Origin: Candidatus Limimorpha sp.
Lineage (GTDB): Bacteria > Bacteroidota > Bacteroidia > Bacteroidales > F082
Assembly (NCBI GenBank): GCA_045117495.1
Contig: JBGUNT010000089.1
Location: 75 to 64,074, forward strand
Direction of reading: 5' to 3'
Length of the DNA stretch: 64,000 bases
Made by a program: the position numbers and the translations under genes. The notes under the pieces were generated by a model. That model was not told the origin of the DNA and did not search any database. It saw nothing but the letters and a program-made list of their open reading frames with translations. Position 1 is the first letter of the stretch, and every line of letters begins with the position of its first letter. Below, one piece after another: positions 8,016 to 37,043 of this stretch.

Positions 8016-8041
8016 AGTGACTTAAGGAATGGAAATAAAAC

Positions 8042-9076: not shown

Positions 9077-9103
9077 TGTCAACTGAATTGTCTTTGTTAT
9101 TAC

Positions 9104-9140
9104 CGCTTTGCGCCACTGCTTCGTTCCTCGCAATGACGAC
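9104..9140. repeat. solo arm of the family-A palindromic element (CTTCGTTCCTCGCAATGACG)
   Basis: Matches the right arm of the complete elements at 11825-11920 and 29924-30008. Lies between the recA stop and the TPR gene start. Confidence 0.7.
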
Positions 9141-9145
9141 AAGGA

Positions 9146-10174: not shown

Positions 10175-10268
10175 AGTTTTGTGGGTTTTTTAATTAGTTA
10201 GTATTTAATGATTTAAAATTTAAAGATTCAAAATTTAAGATTCGATTTGTACGAATCAATTAAAAGGA

Positions 10269-10276
10269 CAAAGATA
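10269..10276 (-). promoter_or_regulatory. -7 box (TATCTTTG on minus strand) upstream of recA
   Basis: Plus-strand CAAAGATA. About 95 nt upstream of the recA ATG. Confidence 0.4.
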
Positions 10277-10461
10277 GTGATTTTTGACATGGCGATAGCG
10301 ATTTGCGGTGAATTATTTTTTCGCTGCAAAGTAACGGAGTTTGTCAAGACCGAGCCGTTGATTAAACGTTTGTAGTCGACAGCAGTCGTTTGTTGTCGTT
10401 TGTTGTCGGGTATATTATTGGTTTGCAATATTTTCTATTCAACAGAGATTGAAACCTCCGT

Positions 10462-11790: not shown

Positions 11791-11824
11791 GCTGCAAAGA
11801 TAGGAATTTATTAGCACATTAATG

Positions 11825-11920
11825 TCGCTTTGCGTCACTGCGAGGAACGAAGCAGTCCAGACATCAAGCTCTTTATCTGGATTGCTTCGTCGTTCCTCCT
11901 CGCAATGACGCGAAGCGGCT
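11825..11920. repeat. complete family-A palindromic (REP-like) element
   Basis: Left arm GCGTCACTGCGAGGAACGAAGCAGTCCAGA and right arm TCTGGATTGCTTCGTCGTTCCTCCTCGCAATGACGC form a long imperfect hairpin in the MATE/nnr intergenic region. Confidence 0.8.
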
Positions 11921-11925
11921 CAAAT

Positions 11926-13434: not shown

Positions 13435-14027
13435 AGCTTCTCAAATTCTTTTTGCAGTTTCTCCTTTCCCTCAAACAATATCCCCGTAATTCCCAAAGCA
13501 TTCGCTGCTGCGACATTATTCGGATTATCATCAATAAACACCGTCTCCTCGGCCTTAATGCCGAAGCGCTGCAAGGCTAATTGGAAAATCCTCGGGTCGG
13601 GCTTCATCACCCGCTCGATGCCCGAAATCACCATGTCTTCCATAAGGTTGAGGACGGGATAAACAGGTCTTACCAAAGCAAAGGTCTCCTCCGACCAGTT
13701 GGACAGTCCAAACACACGGAAGCCTTTGTCCTTCAGTTCCTTGACCAATTCCTCCATGCCAGGTATCTGTCCGCCCATCATCTTCATGAAGTCGCCGTAA
13801 TATAGCTCGATTTCCTTCTTCCACTCGGGATACTCGGCAATGAGTTCCGCCGTGCCTTCTGCCACAGGACGACCATTGTCGTGTTGGGCGTTCCATTCGT
13901 AGGTGCAGATGTGGGTGAGGAACCATTCGGCCTTGTACACATCGCCGAAATAAGGATCATAGAGGTAATGCGGGTTCCAGTCGAGGAGCACGCCGCCGTA
14001 GTCGAATATAATGTTTTTGATCATCAT
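13431..14027 (-). CDS. HAD-superfamily hydrolase
   Basis: Motif I FDYGGVL and motif IV FIDDNPNN. Start moved to MMIKN because the upstream ORF extension translates a repeat element (PAMTV). Confidence 0.8.
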   Translation of the reverse strand: MMIKNIIFDYGGVLLDWNPHYLYDPYFGDVYKAEWFLTHICTYEWNAQHDNGRPVAEGTAELIAEYPEWKKEIELYYGDFMKMMGGQIPGMEELVKELKDKGFRVFGLSNWSEETFALVRPVYPVLNLMEDMVISGIERVMKPDPRIFQLALQRFGIKAEETVFIDDNPNNVAAANALGITGILFEGKEKLQKEFEKL

Positions 14028-14061
14028 TCCATTTTTACGAAGGACATAACCGAGCCCTTTT

Positions 14062-14197
14062 ACCGTCATTGCGGGCTTGACCCGCAAATCGAAGATTAGC
14101 TACGCTGAATCAAAGATTTCGACGTAGTCAATCTCCTATACGTAAGGGTGTCGTCTCCGCACGTAGGAGATGGCGGATCCTTGTCCGCCATGACGGG
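14062..14197. mobile_element. gene-less miniature element bounded by inverted hairpins (CCGTCAT-hairpin-AATC ... GAGAT-hairpin-ATGACGG)
   Basis: Left end at 14062-14090 has the GCGGGCTTGACCCGC hairpin. Right end at 14167-14197 has the GGCGGATCCTTGTCCGCC hairpin. Same terminal architecture as the two GIY-YIG cassettes at 57.3 and 58.8 kb. Confidence 0.6.
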
Positions 14198-14284
14198 TAT
14201 AGGATGAGTGTTGTTTTACCCGGTACAATGTCCACACTCGTCTATATTTTGCCGCAAAGTTAACGAAAAACTCAAAGAAAACCG

Positions 14285-14292
14285 TATTTTTG
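14285..14292 (+). promoter_or_regulatory. -7 box TATTTTTG
   Basis: 20 nt upstream of the tex ATG at 14312. Confidence 0.5.
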
Positions 14293-14311
14293 CATCTTTA
14301 AACCAGAAAAC

Positions 14312-16447
14312 ATGCCCAACACCATAGACTTCGCTGCGCAAATCGCACAGGAACTCGACCTCGCCACGCATCATGTGGCCAACGTCATTCGCCTCTTCGA
14401 CGAAGGCGCCACCATCCCCTTCATCGCCCGCTACCGCAAGGAAATGACCGGCACGATGAATGAAGAGAATGTGGCCGCCGTGCAGAAACGCCTGGAGCAA
14501 CTCGTTGAACTCCAAAAACGCAAGGAAAGCGTCATCGCCTCCATCCGCGAGCAGGAGAAACTCACGCCCGAACTGGAACAAAGGATACTGAACGCCAAGA
14601 CTTTGCAGGAAGTTGAGGATTTATATCTCCCCTACAAGCCCAAACGCCGCACCCGCGCCGCCATCGCCCGCGAGAAAGGCCTGGAGCCACTGGCCGCACA
14701 AATCATGGCGCAGAACGTGGACATGGTGGACCGCCTCGCGGCACGATACGTCAACGCGGGCAAGGGTGTCAACGACATCGAGGAAGCCCTGCAAGGTGCC
14801 AAGGACATCATGGCCGAATGGGTCTCGGAGAACATCAACGGGCGCAACCGCATCCGCAAAATCTTCCACATGCAGGGCGACATCAGCTCCGCCGTGGTCA
14901 AAGGCAAAGAAGAGGAAGGCAAGACCTACCAGCAGTATTTCGACTTCCGCGAGCCGATTTCCGAAGCGCCCTCGCACCGCCTCCTCGCCCTATTCCGCGC
15001 AGAGGAAGAAGGCATGGTGAAGCTGAAAATCAAGGTGGACGACGACTTTGTGCTGAACTCGTTGGAGAGCATCTTCCTGAAGAACGACAACGAATCGTCG
15101 GAGCTCGTACGCGAAGCCATCGCCGACTCATGGAAACGCCTCTTGGAGCCTTCCATTGAGACCGAGATCCGCAATTATTATAAGGAGAAGGCCGACGAGA
15201 CCGCCATCCGCGTCTTCGCCGAGAACCTGAAACAGCTGCTTTTGGCCGCCCCGTTGGGCCAGAAGCGCGTACTTGCCATCGACCCGGGCTTCCGCACGGG
15301 CTGCAAAGTGGTGGTCTTGAGCGAAACGGGAGCCTTGCTCCACAACGAGACCATCTACCCTCACCCGCCCAAGTCGGACACGGTGGGTGCCATGCGCAAG
15401 ATCAAGAGCCTCGTGGATGCTTACCGCATCAAGGTCATCGCCATCGGCAACGGCACGGCGGGACGCGAGACCGAGGACTTCATCCGCTCCATCAAGTTCG
15501 ACCGCGACCTGATGGCCGTGATGGTGAGCGAGAGCGGCGCCTCAGTGTATTCCGCCTCCAAGATCGCCCGCGATGAGTTCCCCGACTACGACATCACGGT
15601 GCGCGGCGCCGTCAGCATCGGGCGCCGACTGATGGACCCACTGGCCGAGTTGGTGAAGATCGACCCGAAGAGCATCGGCGTGGGACAATACCAGCACGAC
15701 GTCGACCAAAAGAAACTCGGCGAGAGCCTCGACCAGACCGTGGAGAGCTGCGTGAACGCCGTCGGCGTGGAACTCAACACCGCCAGCCAGCAGCTGCTGT
15801 CGTATGTGAGCGGCGTCGGGCCCACCTTGGCCTACAACATCGTCCACTACCGCGACGAAATCGGGGGCTTCAAGACGCGCCAACAACTCTATGGCGTGCC
15901 GCGCCTCGGCGACAAGGCCTTCGAGCAATGCGCCGGTTTCCTGCGCATCCATAACGGCGACAACCCCTTGGACCAAAGCGCCGTCCACCCCGAGAGCTAC
16001 CACATCGTGGAAAAGATGGCCAAGAAGCTGAACGTGAAGGTGAAAGACCTCATCGGCAACAAGGAACTCATCGCCCGAATCAACCCGAAGGACTTCGTGG
16101 AAGAGCATTTCGGCTTGGAGACCATCAACGACATCTTGGCCGAACTCGACAAGCCTGGCCGCGACCCGAGAAAGTCGTTCGAAGCCTTCGAGTTCGACAA
16201 GAACATCCGCGAAGTCAAGGACTTGCGCGTTGGCATGACGCTCAACGGCATCGTCACCAACATCACCGCCTTTGGCGCTTTTGTCGACATCGGTGTGCAT
16301 CAGGACGGCCTCGTCCACATCAGTCAGATGGCCGACCATTACATCAAAGATCCGAATGAAGTGGTGCATTTGAACCAGAAGGTTAAAGTCAAGGTACTGG
16401 ATGTGGATGCCAGCAGGAACAGAATCAGTTTGACGATGAAATTGTAA
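14312..16447 (+). CDS. tex: Tex-like RNA-binding transcription accessory protein
   Basis: 711 aa. N-terminal motif IARYRKE, YqgF/HhH middle region, C-terminal S1 domain (GIVTNITAFGAFVDIG). Confidence 0.9.
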   Translation: MPNTIDFAAQIAQELDLATHHVANVIRLFDEGATIPFIARYRKEMTGTMNEENVAAVQKRLEQLVELQKRKESVIASIREQEKLTPELEQRILNAKTLQEVEDLYLPYKPKRRTRAAIAREKGLEPLAAQIMAQNVDMVDRLAARYVNAGKGVNDIEEALQGAKDIMAEWVSENINGRNRIRKIFHMQGDISSAVVKGKEEEGKTYQQYFDFREPISEAPSHRLLALFRAEEEGMVKLKIKVDDDFVLNSLESIFLKNDNESSELVREAIADSWKRLLEPSIETEIRNYYKEKADETAIRVFAENLKQLLLAAPLGQKRVLAIDPGFRTGCKVVVLSETGALLHNETIYPHPPKSDTVGAMRKIKSLVDAYRIKVIAIGNGTAGRETEDFIRSIKFDRDLMAVMVSESGASVYSASKIARDEFPDYDITVRGAVSIGRRLMDPLAELVKIDPKSIGVGQYQHDVDQKKLGESLDQTVESCVNAVGVELNTASQQLLSYVSGVGPTLAYNIVHYRDEIGGFKTRQQLYGVPRLGDKAFEQCAGFLRIHNGDNPLDQSAVHPESYHIVEKMAKKLNVKVKDLIGNKELIARINPKDFVEEHFGLETINDILAELDKPGRDPRKSFEAFEFDKNIREVKDLRVGMTLNGIVTNITAFGAFVDIGVHQDGLVHISQMADHYIKDPNEVVHLNQKVKVKVLDVDASRNRISLTMKL

Positions 16448-19787: not shown

Positions 19788-19795
19788 CCGCCGAT

Positions 19796-19892
19796 ACCAA
19801 TAGGGGTGCCTTATCTGCTACGCAGATTGAAAGACAGGCTGAGATCAAACCCTTTGCACCTGATACGGATAATGCCGAAACAGGGAATCGAG
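19796..19892 (+). promoter_or_regulatory. TPP (THI-box) riboswitch
   Basis: Conserved elements AGGGGTGCC ... GCTGAGA ... ACCCTTTGCACCTGATACGGATAATGCCGAAACAGGGAA match the TPP aptamer consensus. Confidence 0.85.
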
Positions 19893-19948
19893 TTCCTCAT
19901 CTTTCCTCTATTGATTTATTGAATTATTAATCATTAAATCAACGAGTT

Positions 19949-22342
19949 ATGCTCAAAGAACAATCTTTTTTTCTAGCTTTCGCCACCTTAGTGACGATAG
20001 GTCTTCATGCACAGTCTACCCTTACAGGTTACGACACCCTTAATGTCCAAAATTTGGACGAGGTAGTGATCAACGGCGTGCGCCTTCAAAAAAACGCCCC
20101 TTTCTCCGTCACCAACATCGAGAAAACAGAACTCAACGACTTTTCGAAGACCGGTCAGGAGCTCCCCTTCCTGTTTGCGAAGACACCCGGCATCATCGCT
20201 TGGGGTGAGAACGGCATAGGCTCCGGTACTTCTTATATGCGCATCCGTGGCGCCGGCGACTCGCGCATCAATGTCACCCTCGACGGCGTTTCGCTCAACT
20301 CGCCCGAGGACCAGTGCGTGTTCTGGGCCAACATGAACAGCTACGGTTCGCTGCTCAGCTCGGTACAGATCCAACGCGGAGTTGGCAGTTCCACCAACGG
20401 CGACGGCGCCTTTGGCGGCACAGTGTCGCTGACATCGGCCAAGCCTTCCTTTGTGCCGAGTGCCGAAATCACGGGTTCCTACGGCTCGTTCAACACGCTC
20501 AACTTCGGTGCCAAGGCCTCCACGGGATTGCTGTGGAACCACCTCATCGTCGAAGGAGCCTACCACGAGACCCACACCGACGGCTTCATCCACGGCACCA
20601 AAGGCCGCAGCGGCAGCTACTATGGCGGCCTCACCTGGATGGGCAAGAACTTTGTCCTCCGCTACAAGAACATCGGTAACTTCGAGATGACCGGCCAGGC
20701 CTGGAACGGCGTGACGGCTGGCAACAACGACATGAGCCTCATGGACGGCACCTACGGCATCCCGACGGGCATCAAGACCTACGCCGATATGTATAAGGTG
20801 GGTCTAGGACAATTCAACTCGCTCTACGAGTACCTCGTCACCGACGAGGACGGTAACTTCGTCAAAGACGAGAATGGCAATTACATGACCCAACGCTACC
20901 AGATGAACGATGGTTCCTTCTGGGACCGCACCACCGACAATTTCTGGCAAGACCACAACCTGCTCTCCGCCGCTTGGGAGATCAACGAGCACTGGTCAAC
21001 CACGGCCACGCTGCACTATACCTACGGCTACGGCTATTACGATGAGTTCCGCCCCAACAACAAGCTCTCGAAGTTCGGTATGACCTACTACGACGCTGAA
21101 GGCAACCAAGTGAAAAAGACCGACTTCGTCCGCAAGAAAGGACTGCGTCAGGACACCTACGGCCTCGTGTGGTTCACCCGTTACAAGAACGCAAACTGGA
21201 ACGTCATTGGCGGCATCTCCGCGCAGAATTTCCAAGGCAACCACTTCGGCTATGTGACTTATATTGCCAACGAAGGCGTGGCTAACAAATACCTCGCCGA
21301 TGGCGACTACAAATATTACGACTCAGACGCACAGAAGCTCGACGGTAACATCTTCGTCAAGGCTGCCTACACCTTTGGCAATTACTGGACCATCTTCGGC
21401 GACATGCAGTTCCGCTATGTGGACTACAAGACCAACGGCATCAACGACAAGTTCTACGATGACGAGAGCGGCTACTACAACCAGCCACTCGACATCCACG
21501 AAACCTACCCCTTCTTCAACCCCAAGGGCGGCATCTCCTTCGATAAGGGCAGCCACCATGCTTACGCTTCCGTAGCCATGAGCCACCGCGAACCCGAGCG
21601 AAACAACTTCACCGACAACGGCTCCTATCCCTTCCCCAAGCCCGAGCAACTCCTCGACTATGAACTGGGCTACAACTACGACGGAAGCATCTTCCAGGCT
21701 GGCGCCAACCTCTATTATATGGACTACACCGACCAGTTCGTGCAGACCGGTGCCGTCAGCGACATCGGCGAGGCCCTCACCACCAATATCAAGGATTCGT
21801 ACCGCATGGGCATCGAGTTGCAAGCTGGCGTAAACGCCACCAAATGGTTGACCATCGAGGCCAACGCCGCCTTGAGCCAAAACAAAATCAAGGACTTCGA
21901 TGAGGTCGTCGAAGACTGGGACAATTGGGACACTGGCACCGCCACCATCCATTATGACAACTCCACCCTGGCCTTCTCGCCCTCGGCCATCCTAAACGGC
22001 TTTGTCACCTTCCACCATAAAGGCTTCGAGGCCACCTGGCATAGCAATTACGTCTCGCGCATGTATCTTGACAACACCGAGAACCTTGACCGCTCGCTGC
22101 CTGCCTACAGCACCTCCAACGTCAGCCTCGGCTACACGCTGAAGCCCAAGAAAGTCGTCAAGGAAGCCATCGTGAAGGTGAACTTCAACAACATCTTCAA
22201 CAAACGCTACGCCGCCAGCGGCTGGGTCTACTCGGCCATCTGCGACAGCTACGGCCACCCCAACGACAACCGTTACTACCAAATCGGTTTCATCCCGATG
22301 GCAGGATTCCATGTCATGGGCAACCTGACACTGCGGTTCTGA
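19949..22342 (+). CDS. TonB-dependent outer-membrane receptor (thiamine-regulated)
   Basis: Signal peptide, plug domain (IRGAGDSRINVTLDGVSLN), 22-strand-type barrel ending in the aromatic residue F. Preceded by the TPP riboswitch. Confidence 0.85.
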   Translation: MLKEQSFFLAFATLVTIGLHAQSTLTGYDTLNVQNLDEVVINGVRLQKNAPFSVTNIEKTELNDFSKTGQELPFLFAKTPGIIAWGENGIGSGTSYMRIRGAGDSRINVTLDGVSLNSPEDQCVFWANMNSYGSLLSSVQIQRGVGSSTNGDGAFGGTVSLTSAKPSFVPSAEITGSYGSFNTLNFGAKASTGLLWNHLIVEGAYHETHTDGFIHGTKGRSGSYYGGLTWMGKNFVLRYKNIGNFEMTGQAWNGVTAGNNDMSLMDGTYGIPTGIKTYADMYKVGLGQFNSLYEYLVTDEDGNFVKDENGNYMTQRYQMNDGSFWDRTTDNFWQDHNLLSAAWEINEHWSTTATLHYTYGYGYYDEFRPNNKLSKFGMTYYDAEGNQVKKTDFVRKKGLRQDTYGLVWFTRYKNANWNVIGGISAQNFQGNHFGYVTYIANEGVANKYLADGDYKYYDSDAQKLDGNIFVKAAYTFGNYWTIFGDMQFRYVDYKTNGINDKFYDDESGYYNQPLDIHETYPFFNPKGGISFDKGSHHAYASVAMSHREPERNNFTDNGSYPFPKPEQLLDYELGYNYDGSIFQAGANLYYMDYTDQFVQTGAVSDIGEALTTNIKDSYRMGIELQAGVNATKWLTIEANAALSQNKIKDFDEVVEDWDNWDTGTATIHYDNSTLAFSPSAILNGFVTFHHKGFEATWHSNYVSRMYLDNTENLDRSLPAYSTSNVSLGYTLKPKKVVKEAIVKVNFNNIFNKRYAASGWVYSAICDSYGHPNDNRYYQIGFIPMAGFHVMGNLTLRF

Positions 22343-28772: not shown

Positions 28773-28791
28773 GAAATTCCCTTCAGGAATC
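28773..28791. repeat. family-D hairpin (GAAATTCCCTTCAGGAATC) between convergent genes
   Basis: Sequence relative of the hairpins at 19731, 47414 and 47522. Confidence 0.6.
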
Positions 28792-30038
28792 TATTCTTCC
28801 ACTAAATGATAGTATTTCGGCTCATATCCCTCCCACGCCCCTGTCAACAGCTCGGGGTGGAAGAAATGGATGAAATCAGCCAGCAATAGGTCGGGCTCGC
28901 ATTGCGACTGCTCAAAATAACCCGTTGAAAGGATATCGCAGACGATGATTTTATGGTTTTTAAAAGCATCGAAAAGCGTATAGACAGGGTTCTCTTTCCC
29001 TAAGGATTCATATGTCATCGGAAAAGGATTGGAGTTGATGACACGCCAATATTCGGCCTGCTGTGCCTTGGCGAGGATGCTCTCGGCGTCCATGGGGACG
29101 CTAGCCGTCGACGGGTTGTCTTTCCATATGTAGTCGGCACCGGCATCGGCAAAGAGTTTGGCGATATAGCTGCGGCCTCCCGCCACATACCACTGCCCGT
29201 TGAAAGCCAAGTCAGAGAATACAGTGGGACGATGCTCCACCCCGGCACAAAGTGTCGAGAGGGCTTTGTAGCGTCGTTCGATGTCGGCAAACCAAGCGTC
29301 GGCCTTATCCTCACAGCCTGCCATGATGCCGATGACACGGATCCATTCGGCACGGCCCAAGGGCGTGTTCTCCATATAATCGGCAAAGGGGAACAACACA
29401 GCACCTGTGACATTGAGACCGCCTTGGTTGCCATCGAAATAGGGCGAATACAACAAGGCGTCGGGCTTGATTTGTATCATACGCTCGATGTCAGCAGCGG
29501 CCTCCGTACCGATGTCGTAAACTTTCTCCTCTGCCAATAAGGCGCGCATGGTGGAGTCGGTGACAAAACGACCCTCAAGGATGCCTTTCACGCGGTCGAT
29601 CTCGCCAAGGCGAAGAAATACTGCCCATTGTGTGGCTGAGAACGAGACCACGGACTTGACTGGGACTCGAAGTACGCCTTTCACATCCGTATCGACGGCT
29701 TTCGTCGTGTCTTTGACCATGGCAAACTTGCCCAGCGACAAGGTGGTATCCCACGGGCAGATCACTTCCATCAGATAGCCGTAGTCTTTCTCGCTGACGA
29801 CGACATTATGCGCATAGCGCATCAGGTTGTCGACCTCGGTCTTCTCTTCCTTGACTTGATGGTTGAACCTACAGGATGATGCGGAGAACAATAATCCTAA
29901 TATCAGCAACAACCCTAATGCGTGTCGCTTCGCGTCATTGCGAGCGTAGCGCGGCAATCCAGATGTGATGCTTCCTTTCTGGATTTCTTCGTTCCTCGCA
30001 ATGACGGAATCCGTCAGTATTGGTTTATCGTTTTCCAT
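28791..30038 (-). CDS. periplasmic-binding-protein-type (BtuF/FhuD-like) ABC substrate-binding lipoprotein
   Basis: Peripla_BP_2-like segments (VKSVVSFSATQWAVFLRLGEIDRV, IKPDALLYSPY). Lipobox LFSASSC. True start is uncertain: the ATG at 30038 precedes a repeat element, and an alternative TTG at 29957 lies inside the element. Confidence 0.75.
   Translation of the reverse strand: MENDKPILTDSVIARNEEIQKGSITSGLPRYARNDAKRHALGLLLILGLLFSASSCRFNHQVKEEKTEVDNLMRYAHNVVVSEKDYGYLMEVICPWDTTLSLGKFAMVKDTTKAVDTDVKGVLRVPVKSVVSFSATQWAVFLRLGEIDRVKGILEGRFVTDSTMRALLAEEKVYDIGTEAAADIERMIQIKPDALLYSPYFDGNQGGLNVTGAVLFPFADYMENTPLGRAEWIRVIGIMAGCEDKADAWFADIERRYKALSTLCAGVEHRPTVFSDLAFNGQWYVAGGRSYIAKLFADAGADYIWKDNPSTASVPMDAESILAKAQQAEYWRVINSNPFPMTYESLGKENPVYTLFDAFKNHKIIVCDILSTGYFEQSQCEPDLLLADFIHFFHPELLTGAWEGYEPKYYHLVEE
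29924..30008. repeat. complete family-A palindromic element embedded in the 5' end of the binding-protein ORF
   Basis: Arms GTCGCTTCGCGTCATTGCGAGCGTAGCGCGGCAATCCAGA and TCTGGATTTCTTCGTTCCTCGCAATGACGG. Translated in frame as VIARNEEIQ...LPRYARNDAKRH. Confidence 0.8.
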
Positions 30039-30192
30039 TGATTTCCTCCAAGCAGTCTTTACACAGGCAGTCGCTGTAGTGTTCCTTCAGATAGGCTTTG
30101 GTGCTGTCATTGAGCTGTACTTTCACGCACCAGCAGTCGATGGAATGCACGCATTCAAACGTTTTTCCGCAACGGGGACAAGTCTTTTTCAT
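30025..30192 (-). CDS. cysteine-rich CWC-family protein
   Basis: 55 aa. CPRCG...C..IDCWC...C.CKDC pattern. Start moved to MKKTCPRCG. Confidence 0.7.
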   Translation of the reverse strand: MKKTCPRCGKTFECVHSIDCWCVKVQLNDSTKAYLKEHYSDCLCKDCLEEINGKR

Positions 30193-30252
30193 AGTCAAAA
30201 AAGGGCGTGAGACTTTTGTCTCCAAAAGCCTCACGCAAAATAAGAATATCAA

Positions 30253-31332
30253 TTATTTAAACAACATTGCACTGGGAATGACGCCCGCCTCAAATGAATT
30301 GAGCAACACACCGTCATCAGAATAACGACACACGGTACCGTTCATCATATAATTTTTGGCATCGGTCACATAGACATCACCCGTATTCGGGTTGACGGCC
30401 ATGTTATAAAGCAAACCCTGGGGCTCAGCTTCAATACGGAACGTCTCTGAAAGGATCTGCGTTCCAAGATCGAAACGACGCACTTCGTTATTATAGATCA
30501 AATAAAACATACTGCCAGTAGGATTGGCTCTCAAAGTAGAAACCGTACCTTCAAATTCATACCGTTTGGAAGCCGTCTTCATCATCGGGTCAATCTCCCA
30601 TAAGGAAGGTTGCTCGCCATAGTCTTCATCCCAAGAACGGCCCTCGCAAAGCACCCATACATGGCCATTCCTGTCAACGGCCATGCTGTTAGGCTCTTTT
30701 CCCACTTCAATTTCGGCCACCTTGACGTCGTTGTTCATGTCGATGACCTGAACCGTGTTGTAACTGTCATGCGAGGTGTTATCCACATAATAGTATGACC
30801 AGTTGCTGACATACAGTTCGTTGCCTACAGGCACCATCTTCTCGGTGGTCTTACCCGTTTCGATAAACCCGCAATGGGTCATATCTTTGGGATTCACAAT
30901 CCACAGGCCAGTACCGATGATGTCGCTGACATAAGCCTTTTCAGGCGTCACGAAGAACATCTCACGCGGCGAATAGAAGTCGGTCAGTTTAAACGGCTTC
31001 GTGGTGTCGCAAACAATCGAGTTGGCATCCACCTTATAGATAAGGTTGCTGTTGTTGACCACAATGTAAAGCTTGCCGTCAACAAGCGTCATGCTTTCGC
31101 CCACATCGCCAAGCGGTGCATCGTTCACCTTATAGAACAGGTTGTTGCAAACCGTGTCGGCTATGGGATCATAAAACGTCAAAGACGCATTTGAAAATTG
31201 GAAGTTGCCCTCGTTGAGCACCAGCACGCCTGAACCCACCGTAAAACCATTCGGATCAACGGATGGAGTGGGCTTGCAGGCGAACAGCAAGGCGGCGAGG
31301 CATGCCAACAAAAGCAAGTTAATTCTTTTCAT
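30253..31332 (-). CDS. beta-propeller surface lipoprotein (YncE/DUF5074-like; BtuG-type candidate by context)
   Basis: Lipobox LLFAC. About seven repeated blade motifs (LYIVVNNSN, AYVSD, LYVSNW, VWVLCEG, VYVTDAKN). Lies in the cobalamin-riboswitch operon. The BtuG assignment is inference. Confidence 0.65.
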   Translation of the reverse strand: MKRINLLLLACLAALLFACKPTPSVDPNGFTVGSGVLVLNEGNFQFSNASLTFYDPIADTVCNNLFYKVNDAPLGDVGESMTLVDGKLYIVVNNSNLIYKVDANSIVCDTTKPFKLTDFYSPREMFFVTPEKAYVSDIIGTGLWIVNPKDMTHCGFIETGKTTEKMVPVGNELYVSNWSYYYVDNTSHDSYNTVQVIDMNNDVKVAEIEVGKEPNSMAVDRNGHVWVLCEGRSWDEDYGEQPSLWEIDPMMKTASKRYEFEGTVSTLRANPTGSMFYLIYNNEVRRFDLGTQILSETFRIEAEPQGLLYNMAVNPNTGDVYVTDAKNYMMNGTVCRYSDDGVLLNSFEAGVIPSAMLFK

Positions 31333-31345
31333 TGAAGTTTGTATT

Positions 31346-32326
31346 TTATTGTTTTACAACTCTTTTCGTAATAGTATTCCCATCAGCTTTGATGCAGACG
31401 AAATAAATGCCTTGGTTCAAGCCACTCATGTCGACAATAGAAGATGTAGAAATCATCACCTGCTGTCCCATAAGGTTATAGATCTCAACCGATTCCAGAT
31501 TTTCGACCTTGATGGTAAGTCTGTCCCTCACGGGATTGGGATACATGGCAACAGTTTCGTCCTCATTCTCAACAACGTCATAATGATCCAAATCATGAAT
31601 CACGCCTACGGCATCCAAGTCAAAGCCACTGGAAGGAAATCCCGTTGGCCACGGGTCGTTGATAACATGACCTTCCGAGTCGTTGTTGGCATATTCAGGT
31701 TGTATACAACCCACCACGTCGACAATACGGACGTGTGTCACCTTGTTCTTGTCGAGCAATTCGTTGTCCTCCACCTCATCCAAGTCAAAAGGCGTCCCAT
31801 AAAAAGCACCGTATTTACTGGCGAAGTTATGGAGTTGTGAAGGAACAATGGAGCCTGCATTGCCTAATTGGGTCTCGGTTTGGACGTAAGTTACAGCAGG
31901 AAAACGGAAAAAATTCTCGCCATCGGAACTAACCTCCACGAAGCCAAGCTCAAGTGCCCACGTATCAGGGTTTTGTGCGTTGGCGAAGCCATTTTCGAAC
32001 ACGGCGAAATCGGGGCCAGGGCCATTATAAATCGGTGAGGCAAAAGTCAAGACGGCATTTCCACCATCGCCGAGGCTGACGACATCCATCGTCCCGCCAG
32101 GACGGCCCAGGGCCAGCGACTCATTGCCAAACGAGGCCACGCCGTTTTCAGGCTTGTCGATCCTCATCGGACCGCGCTCTACAATGCAGCCTGTAGCCCA
32201 TGCCACAAAGGCCGACGAGTCGGCATGCATGGCTGTGGTGCCAGGTTTATCTTGTGCAGGTGCAAATTGCGCCCACATTGCAACCGGCACCATAGCCATC
32301 AGCAGAAATGAGATCCTTTTTTTCAT
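31346..32326 (-). CDS. secreted protein with T9SS C-terminal sorting domain
   Basis: Signal peptide. C-terminus MYPNPVRDRLTIKV...GIYFVCIKADGNTITKRVVKQ is typical of Por_Secre_tail. Start overlaps the upstream stop (ATGA). Confidence 0.7.
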   Translation of the reverse strand: MKKRISFLLMAMVPVAMWAQFAPAQDKPGTTAMHADSSAFVAWATGCIVERGPMRIDKPENGVASFGNESLALGRPGGTMDVVSLGDGGNAVLTFASPIYNGPGPDFAVFENGFANAQNPDTWALELGFVEVSSDGENFFRFPAVTYVQTETQLGNAGSIVPSQLHNFASKYGAFYGTPFDLDEVEDNELLDKNKVTHVRIVDVVGCIQPEYANNDSEGHVINDPWPTGFPSSGFDLDAVGVIHDLDHYDVVENEDETVAMYPNPVRDRLTIKVENLESVEIYNLMGQQVMISTSSIVDMSGLNQGIYFVCIKADGNTITKRVVKQ

Positions 32327-33582
32327 TTCACCACAAGTTTGGCGGTAGTCACATTGCTGTTGTTGCTCACGCTAATGAAATACATGCCAGCATTCAGCAT
32401 TTCGGTGCTGACACGCACTTGTTCACCAACTTGTGCATCAACACTTTGCTTGCCGACCAAACGGCCTTGTAAATCGTAAACCGAAACTTCGTTAAGGCCA
32501 GCGTTTTCAAGGGTCACAAATGCCTCGCCAACAGCGGGATTCGGATAGACAACCAGGGTACTGGATTGGCTCTCGTTCACGCCCGTGTTGTCGATGGCGG
32601 GCTCAATGGGTTGTTCCCAAGAAATGGTGGTCCAGTCGGAAGACATGATACCGCAAGCATAACCGCCAACCTTCACGAAGTCACCGTCATGAATCGGTTC
32701 AGCCGACATTGCATTCTGACCCATCAAGCCATTCACGCTATGCATAGGCACATCATAGTCGGGATCGCCCCACTGTGCATCCGGGTTGGGGCACATGGTC
32801 AGATCATATTGATCATCCACATAAGTGACGTTGGTGGGAGCCGAACCGATGACCGTCAAACGGCTGTCGGCAGCGGCAATATCAGTAAGAGCTTGGAAAA
32901 CGGTGGCTTCACCATCGAAACGGTAACCCCAAGCCAAAGCAGCCTCAGTGTAGCTGCACCAGCTGATGGCAACTACAACTTCGTTTTCGCCTTCGCCGAC
33001 CCAGAACAAAATCTCGTCAGCTGAAATAGTGGCATCAATGACCTCTCCACCTGCATTCGGGTCAGTAGCAGGAATGATTTCGGTAGTCCAAGAAATAGTG
33101 GTCCAATCAGTGGACATAATACCGCAAGCATAGCCACCAACCTTAACGAAGTCGCCATCATGAATGGGTTCAGCCGACATCATGTTCTGACCCATCAAGC
33201 CATTCACGCTATGCATGGGAACATCATAGTCGGGATCGCCCCACTGTGCATCCGGGTTGGGACACATGGTCAGGTCATACTGATCATCCACGTAAGTGAC
33301 GTTGGTGGGAGCAGAACCGATGACCGTCAAACGGCTGTCGGCAGCGGCAATATCAGTAAGAGCCTGGAAAACGGTGGCCTCACCGTCGAAACGGTAGCCC
33401 CATGCCAGAGCGGTCTCAGTGTAACTGCACCAGCTGAGGGCAACCACGACTTCATTTTCGCCTTCGCCGACCCAGTATTGGATGTCGGCAGGATCGATAG
33501 TAGCATCTTGTTGTGCAAACAGGTTGGTCGTAAACAGACCAAACATTCCAAGAAGGAATAAAAGGGTAAAGTTTTTACGCAT
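32323..33582 (-). CDS. secreted T9SS-sorted protein with an internally duplicated 140-aa domain
   Basis: Signal peptide. Two near-identical domains (aa 26-165 and 183-322). C-terminal T9SS domain VYPNPAVGEAFVTL...GMYFISV. First gene after the cobalamin riboswitch. Confidence 0.75.
   Translation of the reverse strand: MRKNFTLLFLLGMFGLFTTNLFAQQDATIDPADIQYWVGEGENEVVVALSWCSYTETALAWGYRFDGEATVFQALTDIAAADSRLTVIGSAPTNVTYVDDQYDLTMCPNPDAQWGDPDYDVPMHSVNGLMGQNMMSAEPIHDGDFVKVGGYACGIMSTDWTTISWTTEIIPATDPNAGGEVIDATISADEILFWVGEGENEVVVAISWCSYTEAALAWGYRFDGEATVFQALTDIAAADSRLTVIGSAPTNVTYVDDQYDLTMCPNPDAQWGDPDYDVPMHSVNGLMGQNAMSAEPIHDGDFVKVGGYACGIMSSDWTTISWEQPIEPAIDNTGVNESQSSTLVVYPNPAVGEAFVTLENAGLNEVSVYDLQGRLVGKQSVDAQVGEQVRVSTEMLNAGMYFISVSNNSNVTTAKLVVK
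32617..33507. repeat. in-frame tandem duplication, 471-bp period (copies 32617-33036 and 33088-33507)
   Basis: The string GACCCATCAAGCC recurs at 32718 and 33189 (offset 471). The translated copies differ at about 10 of 140 residues, 6 of them in the first 11. Many nucleotide differences are synonymous. Confidence 0.9.
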
Positions 33583-33694
33583 AATAATATAATTTTAGGT
33601 TTGACATTCAATCCATTACATTAAAATGCTTTAGGGAAACGTGGATACACCTTATGCTATAAGGAAAGCCAGCTCTTGTCCCGAAAGCCTCGTT

Positions 33695-33860
33695 TCGTCG
33701 ACAGGCGGCAGGTCTTCTGACTTACTCCTTGAAGCGGGTCGCCTTCCCGAAAAACAATGTTTTCAGTGGCATAGTGACCAGCGTGAAGAGCTTACAGCAG
33801 CGGGAACTGTCCAGGATTTGCACCCGATTCCCTATTGAGCCTTGAGGCACCGCTTATCGG
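33695..33860 (-). promoter_or_regulatory. cobalamin (B12) riboswitch aptamer
   Basis: The minus strand reads GGTGCC...AATAGGGAATCGGGTGCAAATCC...GACAGTTCCCGCTGCTGTAA...GCCACTG...GGGAAGGC...AGTCAGAAGACCTGCC. The B12 box is at 33707-33722. The expression platform continues to the ATG at 33582. Confidence 0.88.
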
Positions 33861-33863
33861 TTG

Positions 33864-33871
33864 CAAAGATA
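33864..33871 (-). promoter_or_regulatory. -7 box (TATCTTTG on minus strand) driving the B12 riboswitch operon
   Basis: Plus-strand CAAAGATA immediately upstream of the riboswitch 5' end. Confidence 0.55.
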
Positions 33872-33915
33872 CAGCATTTTCTATAATAAGGTATACTATC
33901 TTCGAAAAAAGTTCC

Positions 33916-33923
33916 TATTTTTG
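33916..33923 (+). promoter_or_regulatory. -7 box TATTTTTG for the divergent large surface-protein gene
   Basis: 31 nt upstream of the ATG at 33954. Confidence 0.5.
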
Positions 33924-33953
33924 CACATCAAACAACAAATTCATCCAGTCGCA

Positions 33954-36900
33954 ATGAAAAAAGCATTTACCCTTTTTGTCACCCTGCTGTTTATGCTCGG
34001 CTTTGCCAACGCCCAAGATGTTTATTTTTCTGGCAATGGCAACGGCATAGGCAAGATTTGGAAAAACAACACTTTGATTTATAGCATCTCCGATAGCGTT
34101 AACCTCCAAGTGGAGGACCTTCATGTTGCCACAAACGGAACCGTTTATACTGCAGGCCGCGCTATTGCCTCCTCCTATGTGCTGGGACGCGTTTGGATGA
34201 ACGACTCGTGCGTCTTCAGTGCCGACACCAACACCATTATCGACCATCTGGTCCTCACCAACGACGGTTGGATGGCGGCTGGCTTCAACAACGTCTGGCA
34301 AAACGGCGAACTCCTTTATTCTTACAGTTACGAAGAAGCCGAATGCTATATCCATAGTGTAGCCTTTGACACAAACATGGACGACTTTTATGCAGGCGGT
34401 GCCATCTCCTTCAATAGCGACTCCCTCTTTCACGCCAGTGTTTGGAAAAACGACTCGCTCCTTTGGATGGAAGATACCGTTTCGAGCGTCCAAAGCATCT
34501 GTTTCGATGGCGAGGACCTCTTTGCAGCGGGATTCATGGTTGAAAACGACACCCTTTACGGTGTCATTTGGCAAAACGACTCCATCATCTACCAAATGGA
34601 AAACGCCAACTTCGGGCACATTGCTGAATTCAACGGAAGTCTCTATTGGTCGGGGCTTTCCTTGTCGGATACCATAGTCTACATTTGGCAAGACGGCGAG
34701 GTCCTTTACGCCTTGCCCGAGCTTTCTGGAATCAGCAATTTGGTCGTCAACGAGAGCGGTGTTTATTATACCGATGCACAAACGGTTTACAAAGACGGCG
34801 AAGTCCTCTATCAGCCAGGTTACACCCTCACGGGCCTTGCCGTGCTGCCCAACGAGGAAATCGCAGTCCACTCTTTACCCTGGTACGACGGTTTTGAAAC
34901 CGACAGCACTTATTGGGACGAATGGACCATCCTCGACTTCGACGGCAACGCCGAAATCGGATGGCAGCGTAACGACGAGGATGCCGCCACCGGCGACTAC
35001 AGCGCCCGTCACCAAGCTTGCGACAACATCCAAGAAGGCTGGCTCATCACCCCGCCCCTTTACCTGCTGCCCGATCAAGACTCTACTTGGATGACCTTCA
35101 AAACCATGGAGGTCAACCCGGAGAATTTCACCACCAGCAGCCTCCTGGTTTCGACCACAGGCACCGAACTCGCCGACTTCACCCAGATTTGGGCACAAGA
35201 CAATCCCACAGAAGATTGGGCTTCCGTCCGTGTCGACCTCTCTGATTACCAAGGCGACACCATCTATCTTGCCTTCAAATACAGCGGTCACCACGGCCAC
35301 GACTGGTACATCGATGACATCGCCGTTGAAGAGACTCTGACCCTCTACAACATCATCGTTGAGGCCGACAGCACCGGCTGGGGCACCGTCACTGGTGGCG
35401 GCGCCTACCATCCTGGCGACACCATCCAAATCGAGGCCTTCCCTACCGTGGGACATGAGTTCTTGCATTGGAACGACAGCATCGTCGACAACCCACGCAC
35501 CATCGTAGTCACCCAAGACAGCACTTTCACTGCCTATTTCGGCACGCTGCAATTCCTCATCGAGACCTATGCCTCACCCGAAGCCTATGGCATCGTGACG
35601 GGAGGCGGCACCTATCTTTATGGCGACACCATACAGATCGAAGCCATCCCCAACCTCGGCTACGTTTTCTTGGGCTGGGACGACGGCATCGCCGACAACC
35701 CACGCACTATCGTCGTCACCGAAAATGCCTCCTACACCGCCAACTTCGACGTACAACAATGTGTCATCACCACGGGAGTCACCCCTGAAGGGGCAGGTAC
35801 CGTGACAGGCGGCGGCACTTACGGCTATGGCGAGACAGTGACCCTGACAGCACAAAACAACGAAGGATACGTCTTCAGCCAATGGTATGACGGCGTCACC
35901 GACAGCCAACGCGACATCCTCGTCGAAGGCGACGCTACCTATATCGCCATCTTCACGCCCCTGCAATACGAAATCACAACCGCATGCCTTCCTGCCGAAG
36001 GCGGCTTCGTCGACGGTGGCGGCATCTACGACTGCGGCAGCACGGCAGTGCTCACCGCTGTAGCCAACGCAGGCTACTCCTTCCTCTGCTGGAGCGATGG
36101 CATCACCAGCAATCCGCGCTACGTCACCGTGACCCAGAACGCCACTTATACCGCCCGCTTCTTAGCAAACGCCCCGACGCAATACACGGTCACCGTACTC
36201 GCCAACGACCCGTCGCTGGGAACGGTAAGCGGCGGTGGCACCTATAATGAAGGCTCCGACATCGAAATCAGCGCCGAACCCTTTGAAGGCTGCTTCTTCA
36301 AACAATGGGACGACGGCAACACCGACAACCCGCGTCGCATCACCGTCACCGAAGACATGACCTTCATCGCCATGTTTGGCACCACTGAAACCTATACCAT
36401 CCAGGTCAGGCCTGAGAACCCGCTCTACGGCAGCGTTTACGGCGGCGGCACCTATCCTGTCAACACGGTCATCACCATCGGCGCCTTACCCGCCCAGGGT
36501 TATTACTTCTCGGGATGGCAAGACGGCAACGTCGATAACCCGCGTACCATCACCGTCACCGAAAACGCCCTTTATACCGCTTCCTTCTCTCCCAATCCTG
36601 TGGTGACCTACAATGTCACCATCAACTACGACGCTAATCATGGCTACGTCGTTGGAGGCGGCACCTTTGTGGCTGGCAGCATTATCTCTATCGCCGCCAT
36701 CCCTTATGACGGCTACCTGTTTGACAGATGGAGCGACAACTCCACCGACAACCCCAAAGAGATTCTTGTCGACCACGACATCACCTTGACTGCCTTCTTC
36801 CGATTCACCAACGTGGATGAACATGGCTCAGTCGCCTACACCCTATACCCCAACCCCGCCGACGACATGCTCCACGTGGAAGGCCTTGACGGCTCCAATG

Positions 36901-37043
36901 AAATCAAGATTTACAATACCATGGGCATGTTGGTCAAGTCAATGAACGCCGAAGGCGACGCGCTCATCCCCGTCGATGACCTGTCGTCGGGCTTGTACCT
37001 CCTGCGTATCGGGCAACATACCACTACGTTCATCAAGAAGTAG
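33954..37043 (+). CDS. large T9SS-sorted surface protein
   Basis: Start moved to MKKAFTLFVTLLFMLGFANAQ. N-terminal WxN-type repeats such as IWKNNTLIYS and VWQNGELLYS. A choice-of-anchor-J/MAM-like domain (LPWYDGFE...WLITPP). Seven B-repeats (GxVxGGGTY...F.GW.DG..DNPRTI.VT). T9SS tail LYPNPADDMLHV...GLYLLRI. Confidence 0.8.
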   Translation: MKKAFTLFVTLLFMLGFANAQDVYFSGNGNGIGKIWKNNTLIYSISDSVNLQVEDLHVATNGTVYTAGRAIASSYVLGRVWMNDSCVFSADTNTIIDHLVLTNDGWMAAGFNNVWQNGELLYSYSYEEAECYIHSVAFDTNMDDFYAGGAISFNSDSLFHASVWKNDSLLWMEDTVSSVQSICFDGEDLFAAGFMVENDTLYGVIWQNDSIIYQMENANFGHIAEFNGSLYWSGLSLSDTIVYIWQDGEVLYALPELSGISNLVVNESGVYYTDAQTVYKDGEVLYQPGYTLTGLAVLPNEEIAVHSLPWYDGFETDSTYWDEWTILDFDGNAEIGWQRNDEDAATGDYSARHQACDNIQEGWLITPPLYLLPDQDSTWMTFKTMEVNPENFTTSSLLVSTTGTELADFTQIWAQDNPTEDWASVRVDLSDYQGDTIYLAFKYSGHHGHDWYIDDIAVEETLTLYNIIVEADSTGWGTVTGGGAYHPGDTIQIEAFPTVGHEFLHWNDSIVDNPRTIVVTQDSTFTAYFGTLQFLIETYASPEAYGIVTGGGTYLYGDTIQIEAIPNLGYVFLGWDDGIADNPRTIVVTENASYTANFDVQQCVITTGVTPEGAGTVTGGGTYGYGETVTLTAQNNEGYVFSQWYDGVTDSQRDILVEGDATYIAIFTPLQYEITTACLPAEGGFVDGGGIYDCGSTAVLTAVANAGYSFLCWSDGITSNPRYVTVTQNATYTARFLANAPTQYTVTVLANDPSLGTVSGGGTYNEGSDIEISAEPFEGCFFKQWDDGNTDNPRRITVTEDMTFIAMFGTTETYTIQVRPENPLYGSVYGGGTYPVNTVITIGALPAQGYYFSGWQDGNVDNPRTITVTENALYTASFSPNPVVTYNVTINYDANHGYVVGGGTFVAGSIISIAAIPYDGYLFDRWSDNSTDNPKEILVDHDITLTAFFRFTNVDEHGSVAYTLYPNPADDMLHVEGLDGSNEIKIYNTMGMLVKSMNAEGDALIPVDDLSSGLYLLRIGQHTTTFIKK
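35343..36800 (+). repeat. seven tandem roughly 70-aa B-repeat (Listeria-Bacteroides repeat-like) modules, coding
   Basis: The motif TVTGGGTY..G.T..I.A.P..GY.F.GW.DG..DNPRTI.VTE...YTA.F recurs seven times in the translation. Confidence 0.8.

Follow-up and report, generated by a model that had tools for sequence, protein, structure and literature searches.

A cobalamin-riboswitch gene cluster without btuB encodes candidate B12-capture proteins with predicted type IX secretion signals beside BtuG and BtuF in Bacteroidales

The window (the whole 64-kb stretch of DNA analyzed here) contains a cobalamin riboswitch followed by five close-packed minus-strand open reading frames, all intact, which encode, in order, a 419-aa protein (P1; 32323..33582), a 326-aa protein (P2; 31346..32326), a propeller lipoprotein (BtuG; 30253..31332), a small Cys_rich_CWC protein (30025..30192), and a binding-protein lipoprotein (BtuF; 28791..30038). 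An earlier note on this DNA had described the same five genes, and our ORF coordinates agree with it, including the 4-nt ATGA overlap between the P1 and P2 genes. It had also recognized a well-formed B12 aptamer on the minus strand, which was borne out by a search with Rfam RF00174: the aptamer (33690..33869, minus strand) reaches 105.7 bits with E = 2e-25, against a gathering score of 31.5, over the full length of the model (positions 1-189), and a custom covariance model gives it 151 bits. The B12 box, AGTCAGAAGACCTGCC, lies inside the aptamer at 33722-33707, and a putative Bacteroidetes-type -7 box, TATCTTTG (33864..33871, minus strand), was read off the sequence and fits TAnnTTTG, the known consensus of Bacteroidetes promoters.

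The 3' end of the aptamer lies 107 nt upstream of the P1 start codon (33582) on the same strand. Over this leader, from the aptamer to the P1 ATG, a consensus scan found no terminator-like site, and the leader's fold is unremarkable (z = -1.69). A consensus scan did locate an intrinsic-terminator-like hairpin, with a 14-bp stem followed by a T-run, in the btuG/CWC intergenic position (30205..30236, minus strand). The close packing of the genes stands, but this strong hairpin 3' of btuG makes it uncertain that all five share a single transcript, as a one-operon reading would have it, and the CWC gene and btuF may be uncoupled from the riboswitch. For the genes under its control, the riboswitch predicts ligand-dependent repression by B12.

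The last three products of the cluster belong to recognizable families. The 359-aa propeller lipoprotein is present as described but is not a new accessory protein; it is assigned as BtuG: this seven-bladed DUF5074 protein (PF16819, 68.9 bits) matches solved BtuG chains (E = 1.3e-56 to 8bmx; also 8bn0, 8bmy, and 3dsm) and is 36% identical over its full length to BT1954 (BtuG2) of Bacteroides thetaiotaomicron (E = 8e-66), and its N-terminus, MKRINLLLLACLAALLFAC, includes a lipobox (LLFAC, with the cysteine) that predicts a lipoprotein. The 415-aa binding-protein lipoprotein, previously called an orphan BtuF-like protein, is by its sequence a true orthologue of Bacteroides BtuF; it matches Peripla_BP_2 (80.3 bits), aligns with B. 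thetaiotaomicron BT1952 at 27% identity over 321 aa (E = 6e-39), and has a C-terminal FHPEL motif in common with it. Its lipobox reads LFSASSC, and an in-frame TTG at 29957, just 5' of the lipoprotein signal, may serve as an alternative start. Between these two, the 55-aa CWC protein (PF14375, 48.9 bits) has no signal peptide in its sequence. Its family occurs in 11 of the 80 related B12 loci surveyed below and at two further loci (L202 and L204), and a member has been described within a cobamide-biosynthesis cluster of Sulfurospirillum (PMC7755780).

The first two products are predicted cargo of the type IX secretion system (T9SS), as had been proposed from their tails. Both have hydrophobic, Sec-type N-termini, and both end in a type-A C-terminal sorting domain (PF18962, 51 bits; TIGR04183, 53-57 bits), which spans aa 345-419 of P1 (nt 32326-32550) and aa 261-326 of P2 (nt 31349-31546). 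These features suggest that P1 and P2 are anchored at the surface via the T9SS. No T9SS machinery genes were seen within the window. A third T9SS cargo gene adjoins the operon at 33861-37043.

Between its signal and its tail, P1 consists of two tandem domains (about aa 24-180 and 181-337). The duplication noticed earlier is evident in the gene itself as 300-nt copies (33088-33387 and 32617-32916) that are 91% identical. We tentatively classify these domains as a divergent transcobalamin-like SLBB/DUF4430 type on the evidence of relatives and of the predicted fold. PF14478 is matched by 9 of 23 P1-family members, three of them above the Pfam cut-off, and with that cut-off at 23.8 bits, relatives sharing 37-44% identity reach 28.8-37.8; the window's own P1 domain gives no match to this model at E <= 1. 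In the AlphaFold model of P1 (pLDDT 88), the best Foldseek matches are 3u7z, 7qbg, 3kq4, 2pmv, and 4kki, and include transcobalamin, intrinsic factor, and haptocorrin, all at weak values (E = 0.06-0.7, TM 0.37-0.42). The P1 domain is also extended at its N-terminus and carries an inserted stretch of ~15 residues (CPNPDAQWGDPDYDV). PF14717, the model for DUF4465 (BtuJ), does not match P1, P2, or their families; elsewhere it does pick up the neighboring DUF4465 genes of related loci (E = 3e-47).

P2 starts with a Sec-type signal (..AMWA|QF), in place of the lipoprotein anchor of BtuH, followed by a BtuH-like domain at aa 20-258 (nt 31553-32269). No Pfam model exists for this domain, and the family comprises 2,244 clusters (50% identity) at E <= 0.001. 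We interpret the P2 domain as a probable remote homologue of BtuH's B12-binding domain, with confident similarity over ~50 columns. A P2-family profile matches BtuH1, BtuH2, and BtuGH, all at one motif, and hhalign comparisons with the three B. thetaiotaomicron BtuH domains give probabilities of 65-83% (E = 6e-5 to 9e-6); the alignment has 19% identity over 190 columns, of which only about 50 are confidently aligned. In the other direction, a BtuH HMM run against 1,313 ORFs returned 70 matches, and 63 of the 70 are P2 proteins. A second P2 profile searched against the PDB found no BtuH chain. The P2 structural model is of high confidence (pLDDT 94.8), and in the structure comparison the sole Foldseek match below 1e-3 is BtuG1/BtuGH (8blw_B; E = 1.5e-4, TM 0.48); the BtuH2 structure, 7BIZ, is absent from the best 50 matches. 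Resemblance to discoidin and carbohydrate-binding beta-sandwiches was also found by Foldseek. In BtuH2, a Na/Ca and phosphate site is formed by N399, E406, D522, S582, and E584 (PMC13616437). Three invariant or nearly invariant residues of P2, N93, F95, and E107, align with N399, F401, and E406 of BtuH2, whereas the pairing of D197 with D522 and of D217/D219 with S582/E584 falls in low-confidence regions of the alignment only. The two T9SS cargo proteins, which the earlier note had offered as candidates for a different class, are not an entirely separate one: one is SLBB/DUF4430-like and the other is a probable distant relative of BtuH.

Support for the suggested role of these proteins in corrinoid capture extends beyond this one locus. 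In 80 surveyed genomes encoding a P2 relative, a same-strand cobalamin riboswitch lies upstream of that gene in 69, at a median distance of 1.5 kb; of the surveyed P2 loci with enough upstream sequence, about 90% have one. Operon contents were counted for 67 related loci and the window's own (n = 68): BtuG is encoded in 40, a Plug-domain receptor in 34, a DUF4465-T9SS protein in 29, and a DUF4430-like protein in 23. DUF4465 and DUF4430-like genes occur together in none of the 68, and in the window's clade the DUF4430-like gene stands in place of the DUF4465 gene. At three loci (L023, L055, and L079), DUF4430-like and P2 domains are joined in a single polypeptide. P1-domain relatives also occur alongside btuG, btuF, and btuB, even in operons that lack the 326-aa type, as in one with the order riboswitch-BtuG-P1-BtuF-receptor, and the number of P1 domains varies from one to three across loci. 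The families extend to Bacteroidota from soil, freshwater, and marine environments and to some Planctomycetota.

The earlier observation that the operon lacks btuB and btuCD also held. When the BtuB-like receptors of related loci were made into an HMM, it detected no BtuB-type receptor in the 64-kb window, where the sole TonB-dependent receptor (19949-22342, plus strand) lies behind a TPP riboswitch, and no frame of the window has both the Walker A and LSGGQ motifs of an ABC ATPase. The BtuB-less gene order is kept in the 15 most closely related genomes, 10 of which retain BtuG, and neither these loci nor the window has a BtuB within 10 kb; the order occurs with intact genes in at least 10 different genomes, at 61-90% identity. 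The genes 3' of the operon in relatives are unrelated ones. Outside the window's clade, the operons of relatives still include the receptor gene. Our view of each genome covers the 64 kb of the window and 20 kb per relative, which makes a btuB elsewhere in the genome the simplest assumption; btuCD would likewise be encoded at a distance. The transporter that BtuG would cap is therefore assumed, given that no BtuB lies within 10 kb. We regard this B12-scavenging set, which lacks the gene for the usual outer-membrane transporter, as an atypical form of an uptake system that is already known.

We consider it probable that the operon encodes a B12-repressed, T9SS-anchored surface relay of an uncultured gut or rumen member of the Bacteroidales, which captures B12 and feeds a BtuB and a BtuCD encoded elsewhere. 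The riboswitch would permit expression of the operon at low levels of intracellular cobamide. P1 and P2 would pass first through the Sec pathway and next through the T9SS, and their type-A C-terminal domains would anchor them at the cell surface or on vesicles, where both would capture free corrinoids. In such a relay, P1 would fill the role of the DUF4465 protein BtuJ of other Bacteroidota, and P2 that of BtuH. The vitamin would pass from P1/P2 to the surface lipoprotein BtuG, which would cap BtuB, a TonB-dependent transporter, and in the periplasm the lipoprotein BtuF would carry it to BtuCD. The small, presumably cytoplasmic CWC protein may have a corrinoid-linked role.

It is conceivable, though we regard it as unlikely, that P1 and P2, although members of the B12 regulon, do not bind free corrinoids, and that they instead bind host or dietary B12 carriers (intrinsic factor, haptocorrin), strip B12 from these, have a different tetrapyrrole or cobalt as their ligand, or serve as a scaffold for BtuG. 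SLBB domains have varied soluble ligands, with B12 one candidate among others (PMC1796856), and both the discoidin-like and carbohydrate-binding-like aspect of the P2 fold and the clear conservation of BtuH residues at the metal/phosphate site alone would be compatible with such a function. However, the two domain types sit at the operon positions of the proven binders BtuJ and BtuH, and the mutual exclusion of DUF4430-like and DUF4465 genes also argues for corrinoid binding, while host carriers would be irrelevant in the soil, freshwater, and marine habitats in which the families occur.

The missing receptor gene bears on two other interpretations. Capture could be uncoupled from a dedicated BtuB, such that the T9SS binders and BtuG form a free-standing, self-contained device on the surface or mainly on vesicles, which either feeds a different outer-membrane channel from the canonical co-encoded BtuB or serves as a shared extracellular store of B12. 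We give this little credence, in its general form as in either variant. The lack of a TonB-dependent receptor in the operon and within 10 kb, in the window and in the 15 closest loci, even where BtuG is kept, is consistent with it, the more so as btuG of B. thetaiotaomicron is reported to be universally linked to btuB loci (PMC8941943); on the other hand, the BtuG proteins of known structure are stably complexed with BtuB (PMC10404256), relatives outside the clade hold the receptor in the same operon, and a distant btuB is the simpler explanation given the extent of sequence covered. It is more improbable still that the layout is a decaying, non-functional remnant of a canonical btuB-btuG operon. 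The absence of btuB from the operon could be read in this way, as could the related contig L202, on which the P1 and P2 genes are in pieces, yet the window's five ORFs are intact behind a full-length riboswitch, the intact gene order recurs across genomes, and the varying P1 domain number together with the recent duplication suggests continuing selection.

Competition for vitamin B12 is a shaping force in gut and rumen microbial communities, and the Bacteroides system is known as a set of surface lipoproteins, BtuG, BtuH, BtuJ, and BtuK, arranged about BtuB. If the surface relay proposed here is correct, type IX secretion would be a delivery route for B12-capture proteins beyond what has been noted bioinformatically for DUF4465. 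The P2 family, very large and unannotated, would appear to be BtuH's counterpart in the environment, and its domain would offer a ready marker of B12-uptake loci in Bacteroidota and some Planctomycetota. Furthermore, the fold of animal B12 carriers (the transcobalamin beta-domain, SLBB) would appear to be interchangeable with BtuJ on a Gram-negative surface.

The Btu loci of B. thetaiotaomicron comprise a BtuB-BtuG core, the accessory lipoproteins BtuH, BtuJ, BtuK, and BtuL, and BtuFCD (PMC13616437; PMC10404256). The window's operon is similar in its cobalamin riboswitch, its orthologous BtuG and BtuF, its additional surface-protein genes 5' of btuG, and the predicted logic of a multi-protein extracellular relay. 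It differs in lacking btuB, btuCD, BtuK, and BtuL, in having accessory proteins that are predicted T9SS cargo instead of lipoproteins, and in encoding a DUF4430/SLBB protein at the site of the DUF4465 protein BtuJ. With the reference BtuH domains (BT1488, BT1956, and the C-terminal domain of BT1490; PDB 7BIZ and 8BLW), P2 shares the core motif VSLG.GG...DF.V.GN.F...E.G.V.VS.D, possibly a second block seen by eye, FDL...D..G....I.FV(K/R)I, and a genomic niche beside btuG and btuB; unlike BtuH, it has no PKD domains and carries a T9SS tail instead of a lipid anchor, and its family extends far beyond the gut Bacteroidetes covered by the survey of BtuH.

For P1, the closest precedent is the transcobalamin-like SLBB/DUF4430 clade, for which B12 scavenging was predicted in Gram-positive bacteria in 2007 (Burroughs et al.; PMC1796856), and which was described from Firmicutes and archaea near CbiO/CbiQ-type transporters (PMC1796856). 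Like members of this clade, with their predicted role in uptake-dependent organisms, P1 is multi-copy in its domains and predicted to be extracellular, it has relatives above the PF14478 cut-off, and its weak fold matches are to 3u7z of R. gnavus and to the animal B12 carriers. It differs in its Bacteroidota host, its T9SS tail, its setting in btuG/btuF operons, and its lack of an alpha/alpha toroid partner domain. T9SS tails on B12-binding domains are not unprecedented: they have already been noted for the DUF4465 family, in which 229 of 824 members carry the T9SS tail IPR026444 (PMC12751083). P1 and P2 resemble these DUF4465-T9SS proteins in their predicted surface delivery, and in the 29 operons that encode one, the DUF4465 gene lies beside a P2 homologue.

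Upstream of the five genes lies a full-length cobalamin riboswitch recognized by Rfam (33690-33869, minus strand; 105.7 bits, E 2e-25), with a B12 box at 33722-33707 and, as a putative promoter element, a Bacteroidetes-type -7 box (TATCTTTG) at 33871-33864, both on the same strand. The genes follow on the minus strand with almost no spacing between the ORFs: P1 (32323-33582, 419 aa) and P2 (31346-32326, 326 aa), which overlap by 4 nt (ATGA) and both end in type-A T9SS sorting domains (Pfam, NCBIfam); P3 (30253-31332, 359 aa), a DUF5074 protein by Pfam and NCBIfam; P4 (30025-30192, 55 aa), a Cys_rich_CWC protein (PF14375) without a signal peptide; and P5 (28791-30038, 415 aa), a Peripla_BP_2 protein by the same databases, with a possible TTG start at 29957 directly ahead of the lipoprotein signal. 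The earlier note described this locus accurately, and the riboswitch, the five ORFs, their domains, and the missing BtuB were all found again.

No expression platform for the riboswitch was definable from the leader by folding or by a scan for terminator-like sites. The 60-nt gap between the btuG (P3) stop and the CWC start holds a strong terminator-like hairpin (30205-30236, minus strand), in which a 14-bp stem, GCGTGAGGCTTTTGGAGACAAAAGTCTCACGC, is followed by CCTTTTTTGA. Given this hairpin, the riboswitch transcript may largely stop after btuG, in which case the CWC gene and btuF would be expressed via read-through or from a promoter of their own. A T9SS cargo protein of 1,060 aa with seven InlB B-repeat (Flg_new_2) domains is encoded divergently from the promoter region of the riboswitch (33861-37043, plus strand). 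With its TTG start, this long ORF runs into the riboswitch DNA on the opposite strand, so translation probably begins at the internal MKKAFTLF.

For P3, matches to solved BtuG structures (8bmx, 8bn0, 8bmy, 8baz, 3dsm, and 8p97) reach E 1e-56 to 1e-52. For comparison at the sequence level, the Bacteroides thetaiotaomicron btu loci were rebuilt from gut-metagenome contigs, found via published cloning-primer sequences (PMC12751083 supplement); the reconstruction is sound, since every residue of the rebuilt BtuH2 is present at its literature numbering. Aligned with the rebuilt loci, P3 shows 36% full-length identity to BtuG2 (E 8e-66), and P5 shows 27% identity to BT1952, the BtuF lipoprotein, across 321 residues (E 6e-39). 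These matches identify P3 as BtuG and P5 as BtuF, so that the propeller and binding-protein lipoproteins pointed out previously are both real, and are known components instead of new accessories.

The 239-aa domain of P2 is widespread, with 2,244 cluster representatives (50% identity clusters, E <= 0.001), and is frequently embedded in larger proteins, the longest of 2,235 aa. Neither the window copy nor its relatives have a Pfam or NCBIfam model, and the sole signal in those databases is a weak resemblance, below threshold, to the LIC_13355 lipoproteins of NCBIfam. The earlier note had proposed a comparison of predicted structures with BtuG and BtuH, and here the AlphaFold model of P2 (pLDDT 94.8) gave a single Foldseek match below 1e-3: 8BLW chain B (E 1.5e-4), the B. 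thetaiotaomicron BtuG1/BtuGH protein, which bears a BtuH domain. The BtuH2 structure, 7BIZ, was outside the top 50 fold matches. The P2 family profile matches BtuH1, BtuGH, and BtuH2, all on the same motif; its match to BtuG2 is marginal (E 0.12, below the inclusion threshold), and BtuJ2 and BtuL are not matched. Profile-profile comparison with BtuH gave a probability of 65% (E 6e-5, 49 columns), or 83% (E 9e-6, 190 columns) with a greedier alignment. The invariant P2 residues N93, F95, and E107 align with N399, F401, and E406 of BtuH2, which belong to the site where Na and Ca hold the phosphate of the nucleotide loop (PMC13616437). Conversely, searching the 1,313 ORFs of 80 loci encoding a P2 relative with an HMM built on the three BtuH domains gave 70 matches at E <= 1, and 63 of these, including the top 30, were P2 proteins. 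Against the PDB, one P2 profile (A2) reached 8blw_B at E 7.5e-4, a tail-free profile (A4) found no BtuH chain, and a sequence search with P2 matched the T9SS tail only; tails in the P2 alignment were trimmed by tblastn match coordinates. Full membership is opposed by the ranking of 7BIZ, by the outcome with profile A4, and by the anchor, which in P2 is a T9SS tail and not a lipid. Altogether, P2 is very probably a genuine, though distant, relative of the BtuH B12-binding domain. Kinship with DUF4465/BtuJ was also considered and rejected, as P2 has no Pfam match and the two co-occur as separate genes.

The duplicated domain that the earlier note had read in the 419-aa protein is borne out at the DNA level by two 300-nt copies (32617-32916 and 33088-33387), whose 91% identity indicates a recent tandem event. 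Among relatives the copy number ranges from one to three, a sign that it changes quickly within the clade; the usual form is a single domain plus T9SS tail of ∼262 aa. The repeated domain (153 aa) has only 53 relatives in a large protein collection, and the window copies have no direct Pfam match and no NCBIfam family. Among 23 aligned relatives, however, PF14478 (DUF4430) matches nine, and three (37-40% identical to P1) exceed its cut-off (28.8-37.8 vs. 23.8 bits) over the segment equivalent to P1 MHSVNGLMG...DGDFVKVGG. The best PDB matches of the P1 AlphaFold model (pLDDT 88) are 3u7z, a DUF4430 protein, and after it transcobalamin, intrinsic factor, and haptocorrin, at weak E-values of 0.06-0.7. 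A PDB sequence search with P1 matched only the T9SS tail, and tyrosine-phosphatase matches of the family profile were discarded as spurious. Within the SLBB beta-grasp superfamily, DUF4430 corresponds to the transcobalamin-like clade, whose extracellular bacterial members were predicted by Burroughs et al. (2007) to be B12 scavengers, mainly in Firmicutes and beside CbiO/CbiQ genes (PMC1796856). P1 is probably a tandem transcobalamin-like domain; our literature search found no experimental or functional study of a bacterial DUF4430/PF14478 member.

A scan of one genome per species confirmed 548 P2 relatives, and the best 80 of these loci span Bacteroidales, Flavobacteriales, Chitinophagales, Cytophagales, and Saprospiraceae, along with two Planctomycetota. 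In all seven of the diverse loci searched with Rfam, a same-strand cobalamin riboswitch lay upstream, and a covariance model built from those seven extended this to 69 of the 80 (median distance 1.5 kb), with three of the 11 negative loci ending within 200 nt of the gene. The enrichment beside cobalamin riboswitches that the earlier note had put forward as a check is therefore clear. Across 68 riboswitch-led operons (the window's own included), BtuG occurs in 40, a Plug-domain receptor of ∼650 aa in the BtuB position in 34, a T9SS-tailed protein of the DUF4465 (BtuJ) family in 29 (tallied from cluster counts, as an HMM built with tails matched every T9SS protein), and a DUF4430-like protein, always first after the riboswitch, in 23. 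DUF4465 and DUF4430-like genes occur together in none of the 68. In three loci, a cobalamin riboswitch precedes a gene for a giant predicted surface protein, a single polypeptide in which between two and five DUF4430-like domains are joined to one P2/BtuH-like domain: L023 (5036-11404; 2,122 aa), L055 (7721-10882; 1,053 aa), and L079 (plus strand; 2,383 aa). L023 has two riboswitches, at 4802 and 11491. A single-domain P1 relative also occurs independently of P2, in L203, in the order riboswitch-BtuG-P1-BtuF-receptor.

Besides the window, B12 operons from several lineages of Bacteroidota contain a member of the CWC family (PF14375): 11 of the 80 loci (among them L002, L004, L005, L007, L011, L013, L035, and L057) and contigs L202 and L204. 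Another member, SMUL_1567, is flanked by cbiA and sirC in the cobamide-biosynthesis cluster of Sulfurospirillum (PMC7755780). This genomic placement suggests a corrinoid-linked role for the family, for which we found no functional study in the literature. Separately, a Fibrobacter-like contig with abundant Fib_succ_major lipoprotein genes (L201, JGI Ga0466718_078287; 6048-14795, plus strand) has six cobalamin-clan riboswitch-like elements in 9 kb (20-48 bits with our covariance model). Most of them immediately precede one or another of several short sets of genes, and one of these sets includes a distant P1 relative (P0051). Rfam scores these elements below threshold, with AdoCbl at 41.8 bits where the gathering score is 50, and with further matches to AdoCbl-II and Cobalamin.

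The lack of BtuB noted earlier holds under closer search: an HMM from the BtuB-like receptors of related loci has no match in the window, and the sole TonB-dependent receptor there (19949-22342, plus strand; 797 aa) lies directly behind a TPP riboswitch (19792-19903, plus strand; 57 bits) and is presumably a thiamine outer-membrane transporter. ABC-ATPase motifs were not found in any frame. The absence of btuB and btuCD holds for the 64 kb of the source genome at hand, and a route truly independent of BtuB is quite unlikely. The closest loci, L001-L015 (61-90% identity), come from uncultured Bacteroidales of rumen, yak, sheep, horse, and human gut, and share the order DUF4430 (one to three copies) with T9SS tail, P2 with T9SS tail, BtuG (kept in 10), CWC in some, and BtuF, with no BtuB-like receptor within 10 kb; downstream genes have no relation to transport. 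A Segatella/Prevotella origin, to which the many metagenome matches had pointed, was rejected because the closest genomes are these uncultured Bacteroidales. The order is also seen on two more metagenome contigs. This recurrence argues against both an assembly accident and decay as the cause of the missing btuB, and a decaying remnant is barely credible. Judged from these sequences, the gene order without BtuB is characteristic of this clade.

The reading we consider likely is a T9SS-anchored capture relay that feeds BtuG, a distant BtuB, and BtuF-BtuCD. Starting from the observed riboswitch, domain identities, sorting signals, and genomic linkage, we infer binding, anchoring, order of hand-over, and regulation as follows. 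At low cobamide the operon would be expressed, and P1 and P2, exported and anchored via the T9SS, would capture extracellular corrinoids, with P1 in the role of BtuJ and P2 in that of BtuH. BtuG would then receive the vitamin and cap a BtuB encoded elsewhere, and BtuF would ferry it through the periplasm to BtuCD. That P1 and P2 instead bind a non-corrinoid ligand or strip carriers is improbable.

Riboswitch-controlled accessory B12 binders around BtuBG are a well-established general principle, and a published count exists of DUF4465 proteins with T9SS tails (PMC12751083). A literature search combining T9SS with the cobalamin riboswitch found no functional study, and we found no description of Bacteroidota using a transcobalamin-type SLBB domain in place of BtuJ, of P2 as a phylum-wide, T9SS-borne family distantly related to BtuH, or of a conserved btuG-btuF operon without btuB. 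The locus merits specialist attention and is easily tested. The relay proposed here would mirror the extracellular relay of B. thetaiotaomicron (PMC13616437; PMC10404256; 10.1101/2025.07.01.662609).
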